NCBI GenBank assembly: GCA_046538485.1
Contig: JBKHIT010000002.1
Coordinates: 1-64,000, forward strand
Direction: 5' to 3'
Length of the DNA: 64,000 nt
DNA from: Candidatus Brocadiia bacterium
GTDB lineage: Bacteria > Planctomycetota > Brocadiia > SM23-32
Part shown: piece after piece, positions 1-774 of the stretch
Numbering within the stretch: position 1 is the stretch's first letter
Layout: each line of letters starts with the position of its first letter
The notes under the pieces: model-generated
What the model saw: only the letters and a program-made list of their open reading frames with translations
What the model was told of the DNA's origin: nothing
Database searches by the model: none
Made by a program: the position numbers and the translations under genes

Positions 1-33
1 CCTAATACAGGTTAAAAAGTAACTGTTCGAGAT
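1..33 (+). other. Candidate integron attI / upstream cassette recombination point
   Basis: GTTCGAGAT at 25-33 is the exact reverse complement of ATCTCGAAC at 504-512, which is the inverse core of the downstream attC. Bases 1-24 are AT-rich and do not resemble the end of an attC arm. Confidence 0.45.
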
Positions 34-38
34 AAGAG

Positions 39-620
39 ATGAAGAAACCATGGATAGCAATCGTTGTCGTTGTGGCGGGCCTGCTCTTTGCCCCGCTCGT
101 TGTGCCGATCTTCATTCCTTGGTCCGGCATCAACTGTCGGCATCAGGACATAAATATCAAGACGGGGCAGGCCCGTTACTCCCGTAGCCTGTGGTTCGTA
201 AAGGTGTCCGAGCGAATCGAAGATACCCCATTGTCGCTTGCGCTACAGGGAGACACTGTCGATGTTGCAGACATCAAGGCGTGGCACCGCGTCAACACGT
301 TCTCTCCGGGTGTCCACCATTCTCCTCATTACATATTTCACAGCGCTTTGCACCAAGCACATCAGATGGAAATGCTTGAGTCCCTTCATGAACTCACGCC
401 GGAACGTAAGAAGGATATTGCCAAGTCAATCTTGACTTTTTGGCAGCAGTCGGGACGCGACAGCGGAGCAGACGAGTTGATTAACAAACTGATGGAAGAA
501 GGAATCTCGAACAAGCCGGATGCAGGCGACGGCTTACAGCCGCGCGTGATCCGCAACGTTCGGCTCGGAGATGATGATGACGGAACGGCTACTCGAATCG
601 CCATTGCGCGCCACGGATGA
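39..620 (+). CDS. Integron cassette ORF, membrane-anchored hypothetical protein
   Basis: ATG lies just downstream of the GTT core site. The N-terminus is hydrophobic (WIAIVVVVAGLLFAPLVVPIFIPW). The C-terminus reads into and through the attC (NKPDAGDG). Confidence 0.7.
   Translation: MKKPWIAIVVVVAGLLFAPLVVPIFIPWSGINCRHQDINIKTGQARYSRSLWFVKVSERIEDTPLSLALQGDTVDVADIKAWHRVNTFSPGVHHSPHYIFHSALHQAHQMEMLESLHELTPERKKDIAKSILTFWQQSGRDSGADELINKLMEEGISNKPDAGDGLQPRVIRNVRLGDDDDGTATRIAIARHG
506..564 (+). mobile_element. attC site (59-base element)
   Basis: R'' CTCGAAC at 506-512 and R' GTTCGGC at 558-564. Imperfect hairpin CGGAT/ATCCG, CA/TG, GCG/CGC, CGGCT/AGCCG with single bulged bases at 522 and 529. Length is 59 bp. 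Confidence 0.8.
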
Positions 621-774
621 AGCCGGGGTCGCGCAAGTTGACGGTCTCCTCCACGAGGAGACATTCGATCTCGACGGGATCAAGCACGACGTGGTTGCGC
701 AGACGATCACGATTCCCGTGCGCCGACAGTTTCATGGCGGTCCTGATCCTCACACTTGTGCTCTTTGCTCCTGA
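571..774 (+). pseudogene. Probable truncated second cassette ORF
   Basis: GGAG ribosome binding site and ATG immediately follow the attC R' site. The ORF is 67 aa, and I found no matching GCCGAAC inverse core or second attC downstream. Confidence 0.45.

Follow-up and report, generated by a model that had tools for sequence, protein, structure and literature searches.

The stretch of DNA analysed here (the window, 64,000 nt) is the first 64 kb of contig C67 in the genome assembly of a Candidatus Brocadiia bacterium (143 contigs, 5.19 Mb; completeness 88.3%, contamination 4.0%), and window base 1 is the end of that contig. At this end lie the last bases of a repeated element that we call LF, an open reading frame (ORF) for a 193-aa protein, a hairpin with the properties of an integron attC site, and the remnant of a further gene. 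An earlier note on this region, made from the letters alone, had described it as an integron gene-cassette array, and the cores and the hairpin were all found where that note had placed them (GTTCGAGAT at 25–33, ATCTCGAAC at 504–512, GTTCGGC at 558–564); the position of the hairpin inside the ORF was absent from it. The features, with the evidence for each in brackets (R1 and R2 are covariance models described below), are as follows.

1–24, + strand: tail of the LF element (its final 24 nt, cut by the contig start), forming the left flank of the insertion point (85% match to C67:149200–149226, − strand; LF pattern and profile)
25–31, + strand: upstream R′ core GTTCGAG, with the putative crossover between G25 and T26 (homologue similarity starts at GTT; perfect complement of R″ 506–512)
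26–558, + strand: complete gene cassette of 533 nt, comprising a short leader, the ORF and the attC (alignments of four homologue loci; a metagenome contig with an unlike left side)
39–620, + strand: cargo ORF, 193 aa, with an N-terminal membrane helix; residues 167–193 are a read-through tail (relatives stop at nt 537–539)
506–564, + strand: attC site with R″ CTCGAAC at 506–512 and R′ GTTCGGC at 558–564 (R1 and R2, fold, metagenome contigs)
515–534, 535–537, 538–554 and 555–557, + strand: left arm (extra bases G522 and A529), loop, right arm and spacer of the attC (R2 alignment, fold)
571–774, + strand: truncated gene remnant; nt 574–747 are the first 58 residues of a family of about 156 aa, with the break near 748 (phmmer, tblastn)

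The attC-type site at 506–564

As single-stranded DNA, bases 508–562 form an imperfect hairpin (the 59-nt site is 506–564), with CGAAC pairing with GTTCG and with spacers of AA and AAC. The folding energy was −18.1 kcal/mol for the + strand (z −2.58, 5 of 200 shuffles equally good) and −16.3 kcal/mol for the − strand (z −2.04, 7 of 200). The R″ core matches GTTCGAG at 25–31 at 7 of 7 positions (10 of 10 when extended, giving the perfect 10-nt inverted repeat 24–33/504–513), as against 5 of 7 for its own R′. This core swap, to which the earlier note had drawn attention, is genuine and is not confined to the window: it is perfect in two other cassettes of the genome (C67:149.2 kb and C125) and in all six cassettes of the array at homologue locus L028, where every R″ is perfectly complementary to the R′ before it, and the same pattern is seen at homologue locus L026.

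At L028 a homologue of the cargo protein (34% identity) is one cassette in an array of seven attC sites of about 90 nt with AAC...GTT cores and compensatory change in 14 of 27 pairs. A covariance model built from these seven sites (R1) found the same attC family in 41 of 61 genomes searched, namely G041 (the genome of L028) and its relatives, and a second model (R2) was built from 76 Planctomycete attC sites in 29 other genomes of that set; neither contains anything from the window's genome, and the expectation values (E) of both are rough, their calibration having been shortened. With filters off, the best R1 match in bases 1–1200 was exactly 506–564 on the + strand (15.9 bits, E 0.0012; the next 4 bits). 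R2, run with filters off on both strands of the whole 64 kb, gave the same bases over its full length (model positions 1–91) at 23.9 bits (E 3.3e-4), the score having risen from 15.9 bits on broadening from the 7-site to the 76-site model; the next best was 11.6 bits (E 1.1), so that nothing but 506–564 fell below E 1. Applied as a positive control to 11 loci with an IntI above the NCBIfam cut-off, R2 found eight attC sites (27–50 bits, 60–126 nt) in seven of them, and attC sites of 60–61 nt adjoin true intI genes in relatives of the same class (L091, L092).

The extrahelical bases of an attC, which govern strand choice, are canonically G and T on the bottom strand; in the window they are C and T, matching the Planctomycete model's consensus. 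What the earlier note had taken for non-canonical cores and an unusual bulge is thus ordinary in this company: C is the fourth R′ base in 25 of the 76 Planctomycete sites, and the unpaired left-arm bases of the window (G522 and A529), which align to the two unpaired positions of the model, are the R2 consensus, including the top-strand G at the first bulge. In an alignment of 12 short sites from this genome, L026, L012 and L010, itself fitted to the model, 90.1% was paired with compensatory change in 19 of 27 pairs; none of 500 shuffles was as good and slid controls were 28–43% paired. No Rfam family matches the hairpin, no T-run follows its stem and blastn found no second copy of it in the 5.19-Mb genome. 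Genome-wide searches with R1 and R2 returned nothing, with 150 of 1191 and 150 of 1685 candidates scored, and carry no weight because the window site itself was missed; a sequence-only profile of the 76 sites (nhmmer) gave nothing below E 1 in the genome, model-supported sites included. We conclude that 506–564 is an attC-type site.

Cassette boundaries, cargo and downstream remnant

The ends of the cassette were defined by comparison with homologue loci. At L026 (42% protein identity) the DNA upstream of the homologue reads ...GTTCGAGAC-5 nt-ATG, and CTCGAAC opens an attC-model match that overlaps the stop codon (1274–1344, 27 bits), one of three such matches found on one strand by a sensitive search. 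At L010 (72%) GTTCGAGAC precedes the start and both 3′ cores are mutated (CTCGAGC, AACAAT), while at L012 (62%) there is GTTGGAG upstream and CTCGAAC...AACGTTGGGT at the 3′ end; weak attC matches at L012 and L010 (15.9 and 13.6 bits) end exactly at the GTT before the homologue start. Among the window, L026, L012 and L010, DNA similarity extends only from GTT(C or G)GAG before the ATG to ...CCGNAAC/GTT (the slash marking the boundary), and outside these limits the loci are unrelated. As the shared similarity is bounded by both GTTs, 26–558 is a discrete 533-nt cassette. The closest homologue locus with readable DNA flanks is that at 72% identity, the relatives at 82–92% having been compared as proteins, and neighbourhood clustering found no conserved neighbour gene across the window and 35 homologue loci.

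Bases 1–1500 were also compared with the contigs of four metagenome runs labelled microbial-mat and salt-lake: X1, possibly the source sample, and X2 come from one study, X3 and X5 from another. Some stretches of 1–1500 are not covered by contigs of X2, X3 and X5. Contig depth spikes only at 501–600 (X2, 87.6 versus about 4.4; X3, 26.8 versus about 3; X5, 38 versus about 2), and many short contigs match only from 508 or 510 to 560 or 564, on either strand, with three to nine differences and with flanks unlike those of the window (loose-end agreement 0.45–0.6), so that the hairpin behaves in these communities as a shared recombination site on many different cassettes. A 436-nt contig of X3 matches 557–820 with three differences and its first 172 nt are unlike the window, so that the left neighbour at the R′ crossover is a different one there.

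We therefore read 26–558, with a probability of roughly 0.8, as one intact integron-type cassette standing at the terminal GTT of LF, that is, as an insertion without an integrase resembling the single attC sites lacking integron integrases (SALIN) discussed below.

The cassette is a promoterless ORF for a small membrane-anchored protein together with its own 59-nt attC. No family in Pfam or NCBIfam matches the protein. Of 380 candidates, 126 are homologues at E ≤ 1e-3, mostly of about 166 aa. The metagenome-assembled genomes (MAGs) that carry them are, where the source is named, mostly Planctomycetota or families within that phylum, and genome records with relatives are named Phycisphaerae, Planctomycetaceae, Kiritimatiellia and others. 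Distribution of the gene is patchy, 41 genomes including the window's having given three weak matches (E 1e-6 to 9e-5) besides the window's own. The closest relatives (82–92% identity) end in ...AGDGL, which corresponds to nt 536, and the window has CAG at 537–539, so that the ancestral stop lay in the hairpin loop and the window copy carries a 27-residue read-through tail. The predicted structure (predicted local distance difference test score 73.9, predicted template modelling score 0.64) has an N-terminal helix, a small sheet and a helical bundle, the tail (residues 160–193) scoring below 50 on the former measure and being unstructured; Foldseek comparison of the model with the PDB gave no fold match at E ≤ 0.001. 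The family comprises at least 126 proteins without an assigned function and is cassette-borne in some lineages.

Downstream of the cassette, the ORF at 571–774 is a real gene fragment, broken near 748. In a phmmer search of 1.84 billion representatives it matched only residues 1–58 of a family of about 156 aa (P0122, 158 aa, 81% over residues 1–58; P0128 and P0129, 156 aa, 44% and 38%), tblastn gave identities of 44% and 40% for P0128 and P0129 to this region, and tblastn for residues 59–158 found nothing in bases 1–1500 or elsewhere in the genome. A homologue search at similar lengths gave nothing for the ORF. All three variant positions listed within it (591, 618 and 657) are third codon positions of its frame, and R2 found no attC after it in the 64-kb window at E ≤ 1.

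Some observations on the loci compared stand apart from this. Upstream of the first cassette of L026, at 640–820, a direct repeat of about 18 nt (TTATACGG-type) occurs three times, in copies that could be integrase-binding repeats of an attI, and the 640 nt from there to the contig end hold no integrase ORF; the same array, from a Phycisphaerae MAG, has at 2069–2837 a toxin–antitoxin pair that by eye is HigB/HigA-like. Farther along the window, 866–1013 is a non-coding element of about 135 nt with a 78% identical copy at C44:73391–73525 and raised depth in X3 (25 versus about 4). The Rfam family whalefall-1 at 895–998 on the − strand was rejected, as it scored 21 bits against a gathering score of 37 and was not repeated in the C44 copy. 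A 34-nt stretch at 1118–1151, within a leucine-rich-repeat ORF (1040–1594, − strand), recurs in X1 and X3 contigs with unlike flanks and gives joints that go back on themselves, the behaviour of a repeat unit in such a gene.

The LF element and other cassettes of the genome

LF, as delineated by pattern and profile searches, is a repeated element of about 110 nt that ends ...CCTGTT, and the genome holds at least five further copies besides window 1–24.

C67:149202–149310, − strand: LF copy (profile and pattern); the 27 nt left of the crossover are 85% identical to window 3–29
C125:35195–35285: LF copy, cut by the contig end
C115:2445–2537: LF copy, lacking AAC at the would-be R″
C3:103654–103740: LF copy, ending in GTC, not GTT
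C9:2–55 and C110:28608–28660: LF 5′ halves only

Four of the five copies that keep their 3′ end are followed by an attC-model match (R2 scores: window, 23.9 bits; C67, 29.0; C125, 36.1, E 3e-8; C3, 13.7, E 0.06); the fifth, that on C115, is not. The C125 site (L087 5757–5829, equivalent to C125:34756–34828) has the cores GTTATGG/CCATAAC, and the C3 site (L103 3826–3885) has GTCATGC/GCATAAC, both GTT triplets being changed to GTC. On C67 itself a second attC was found by structure scan at 148653–148708 (L086 2653–2708; 29.0 bits, E 1e-6). Here the − strand reads LF-GTTCGGC, a 187-aa membrane ORF, the GCCGAAC...GTTCGAG attC, a gene for a ZIP-family metal transporter (Pfam Zip, 85.3 bits) and a further attC 930 nt from the 29.0-bit site (L086 1660–1720, 18.4 bits, E 0.0012), the whole forming a two-cassette cluster at C67:147660–149310 (L086 1660–3310). 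Counting that of the window, this genome thus has at least four mini-clusters docked at LF, each with one or two cassettes. The structure scan (27,435 folds, 29 rows) is no census, as neither the C125 site nor the second of the L086 sites was picked up by it. A 16.1-bit match at L087 3427–3498 was not counted as an attC because it lies inside an 897-aa ORF, and an LF pattern match with three mismatches at C95:4711–4729, with no flank similarity and no attC nearby, was taken as chance.

LF matches nothing in Rfam or in 60 relatives, and its profile matches nothing in the 11 IntI-bearing loci or the homologue arrays. Four copies folded together give a weak consensus structure (−7.9 kcal/mol, compensatory change in 3 of 23 pairs), and LF was rejected as a structured RNA on that account. 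No integrase-binding repeats are identifiable in it. On the cassette strand of the C67:149.2 kb copy, a promoter scan gave no sigma-70-like site; by eye there is a TTGAAT-N17-TAACTT, conserved in spacing only. LF also contains ATAATGA, which we take to resemble a half-site of a Fur/Zur box. An attI-like role is possible. In a separate observation, the last 55 nt of C125 (reverse strand) are the first 55 nt of C9, that is, the LF 5′ half, after which the two diverge; this is a branch of the assembly graph inside LF and suggests either strain variation or a second breakpoint in mid-element.

No integron integrase was found in the 88.3%-complete assembly, where TIGR02249, with its cut-off of 265 bits, scored 76.9 at best. 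Searched by tblastn, the IntI proteins of three other genomes matched only on C84 and C86, and the proteins there pass the XerC and XerD equivalog cut-offs (357.2 versus 335.15 and 344.5 versus 329.6 bits), so the two tyrosine recombinases of the genome are XerC and XerD. Neither of the two in-contig LF copies whose neighbourhoods were read has an adjacent integrase: that at C67:149.2 kb has a divergent rubrerythrin gene and pyrF (the latter read by eye) upstream and no recombinase within 2.7 kb, and that on C115 follows a gene read by eye as lgt. Among the 61 genomes searched, the window's own included, 12 have an IntI above the cut-off, most of them belonging to a single family of the same class, and none of the 30 genomes of the window's own family does.

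Repeats of other kinds were also noticed. Palindromic repeats of about 71 nt (62 nt at C44), starting GCTGAACTC and ending GTTCAGA, came out of the structure scan and are dispersed on six contigs. Two nearly identical 71-nt GC-rich hairpins, each near a contig start (C17:28–98 and C97:126–196), probably belong to the end of a repeat at which the assembly breaks.

C2:28514, C36:14383, C44:182933, C85:48945, C89:594, C90:41143 and C90:41473: palindromic repeats of the GCTGAACTC type

Origin of the insertion and comparison with known systems

If the window cassette arrived by integron recombination, the original LF site would have read ...CTGTTCGGC, with GTTCGGC as the original core. IntI would have folded the bottom strand of the attC of a circular 533-nt cassette and joined it by recombination to the G/TT ending LF, giving LF-G/TTCGAG...cassette...AACG/TTCGGC. 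Insertion of a circle at G/TT would account for an R″ (CTCGAAC) that is perfect with the upstream core and matches its own downstream core at 5 of 7 positions. The enzyme concerned may since have been lost, may be encoded in the unassembled 12% of the genome or may have acted in trans from a transient element. Of the earlier note's account, an IntI-integrated circular cassette with a predicted unit of 533 bp, the attC-type site and the cassette 26–558, which has that size, have stood up. Its array, attI and neighbouring intI have found no support: there is one complete cassette plus a truncated remnant with no second R2 match at E ≤ 1 in the 64 kb, bases 1–24 are the tail of LF, and base 1 is a contig end, with no intI in the assembly and none beside the two LF copies read.

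Several points weigh against reading 26–558 as a cassette inserted at LF. On its own the 10-nt inverted repeat is no more than chance would give, since two other perfect inverted repeats of 9–10 nt (132–141/722–731 and 76–84/167–175) lie within the same 1.1 kb; it gains weight from its position and from comparison, because the independent attC model picks 506–564 and distant homologues are flanked by the same pair of cores. The score against the attC model is modest, corresponding to E of about 0.03 when extrapolated to the 5.2-Mb genome, and conservation of the hairpin may be partly driven by the protein as its left arm is coding sequence. Cores of the GTTCGAG/CTCGAAC type are absent from the other 31 of 35 distinct homologue loci, implying that the gene family is a cassette in some lineages only. 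No joint skipping 26–558 was listed in the contigs of the four runs, and no integrase, excision joint or circle was seen. Lastly, since the contig starts 24 nt to the left of the crossover, the docking partner is read by analogy with the other LF copies.

The alternatives differ in what they make of the hairpin and of LF. That the hairpin is a product of chance, a palindrome of the repetitive extragenic (REP) or miniature inverted-repeat transposable element type, or a terminator in or after an ordinary gene, with no tie to integrons, is very improbable and largely refuted. It would suit the hairpin z-score of −2.6, the chance-level inverted repeat, the lack of an Rfam match, the empty whole-genome model searches and the many copies of the hairpin in metagenomes, as a REP would show; but an independent attC model selects exactly 506–564 and its strand, the core swap recurs in three cassettes of the genome and in L026, the homology boundaries fall at G/TT and the stem lacks a T-run. 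Moreover, blastn detected no second copy and the structure scan and attC model together only one diverged relative, 148 kb away, which is unlike a REP family, and the empty genome-wide searches are weightless. We also think it quite unlikely that the locus is a complete chromosomal integron, with the cassette next to attI, bases 1–24 forming the attI, and intI beyond the contig start. The left side of base 1 is indeed unseen, and a pair of 54-nt contigs from the likely source run (depths 22 and 8.4) stops within window 1–30, indicating that the assembly graph branches there. Also in its favour, the genome is 88.3% complete, 12 of the 61 genomes searched have IntI above the cut-off, mostly those of one same-class family, and MAGs such as G041 can hold arrays without an assembled intI. 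Against this, neither IntI nor a fragment of it occurs anywhere in the assembly, the C67:149.2 kb copy of LF sits inside a 200-kb contig among the genes described above and the C115 copy after lgt, the window's own family has IntI above the cut-off in none of 30 genomes, and the LF profile is unmatched in the 11 IntI-bearing loci.

An origin of LF as a diverged attC, or as the 3′ end of a cassette without an ORF, the loci then being fragments of former arrays built by attC × attC recombination, we consider unlikely. The last 57 nt or so of LF do fold, with the base pairing GAAC with GTTC (L086 3196–3295, − strand, −14.4 kcal/mol, z −2.76), its 5′ part reads ...CCGAACAACGGGATTCAGG, like the R″–L″ side of the second L026 attC, and at L010 and L012 an attC-model match precedes the homologous cassette. 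The attC model, however, gives LF only a partial match of 7.8 bits (E 1.3), the consensus fold is weak as noted above, the C115 copy is without AAC at the would-be R″, and LF shows a sequence conservation that is unusual for attC sites. A further idea, which we put forward tentatively as possible rather than probable, is that LF is a dedicated multi-copy docking site: integrase-less mini-platforms would stand at five or more places, each taking one or two cassettes at the same GTT, possibly with a promoter of its own, and would be served in trans by a transient, unassembled or lost integrase. LF may be an attI-like target, an attG hot spot (see below) or a decayed attC.

Integron cassettes outside clinical Proteobacteria are a large and poorly charted gene pool, to which this locus adds a short attC type (about 56–73 nt) that is abundant, with unlike flanks, in microbial-mat and salt-lake metagenome contigs. 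The origin of integrase-less cassette clusters is described as an open question (PMC4889954; 10.1101/2022.09.11.507474). If LF is indeed a preferred target it would allow site-specific capture at a distance from an integrase gene to be put to the test, and LF docking, if true, would be a distributed alternative to the single intI–attI platform and a concrete origin for some SALIN and for some attC-site clusters that have no integron integrase (CALIN).

Compared with the chromosomal-integron arrays of Planctomycetes, the window cassette has the same R″...AAC/GTT...R′ cores, an imperfect hairpin with two extra bases in the R″–L″ arm, the same short leader (ORF 8–13 nt after R′), an ORF whose end overlaps the attC and an R″ complementary to the upstream R′. 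It differs in that its site is 59 nt long, whereas the 76 model sites are 87–134 nt (median 91), the central 36 model positions being replaced by a 3-nt loop, and in that it lies outside an array and without an integrase. The terms SALIN and CALIN denote a single attC and a cluster of at least two attC, respectively, without an integron integrase (PMC4889954; 10.1101/2022.09.11.507474). As in these, attC cassettes with cargo of no assigned function occur in ones and twos, and intI is absent both from their surroundings and from the genome. The cluster at C67:147.6–149.3 kb, with two attC 930 nt apart, is a CALIN by that definition; the window locus, with one attC at E ≤ 1 in 64 kb, is not and is SALIN-like. 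What differs here is that at least four clusters lie behind copies of one element of about 110 nt, at the same GTT, and we found no such repeated docking arrangement in the accessible text of either source (PMC4889954; 10.1101/2022.09.11.507474).

One source reports that IntI inserts cassettes into genomic sites outside attI and attC, termed attG, which share little beyond a GWT motif, and that such cassettes are expressed near a resident promoter and remain excisable (10.1101/2022.09.11.507474). LF resembles an attG in offering a GTT-type triplet in ordinary chromosomal DNA, but it is a long conserved repeat used repeatedly and looks more like a dedicated site. With attI it shares sequence conservation, weak structure, a GTT crossover end and a place upstream of the first cassette; unlike attI it is multi-copy, lies away from intI in both in-contig copies read and is unmatched in the 11 IntI loci. 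For most integrons the attI sequence is unknown (PMC4889954). The window locus is therefore a sound but ordinary instance of a known element, a cassette of SALIN/CALIN type, and repeated docking at LF is its unusual part.

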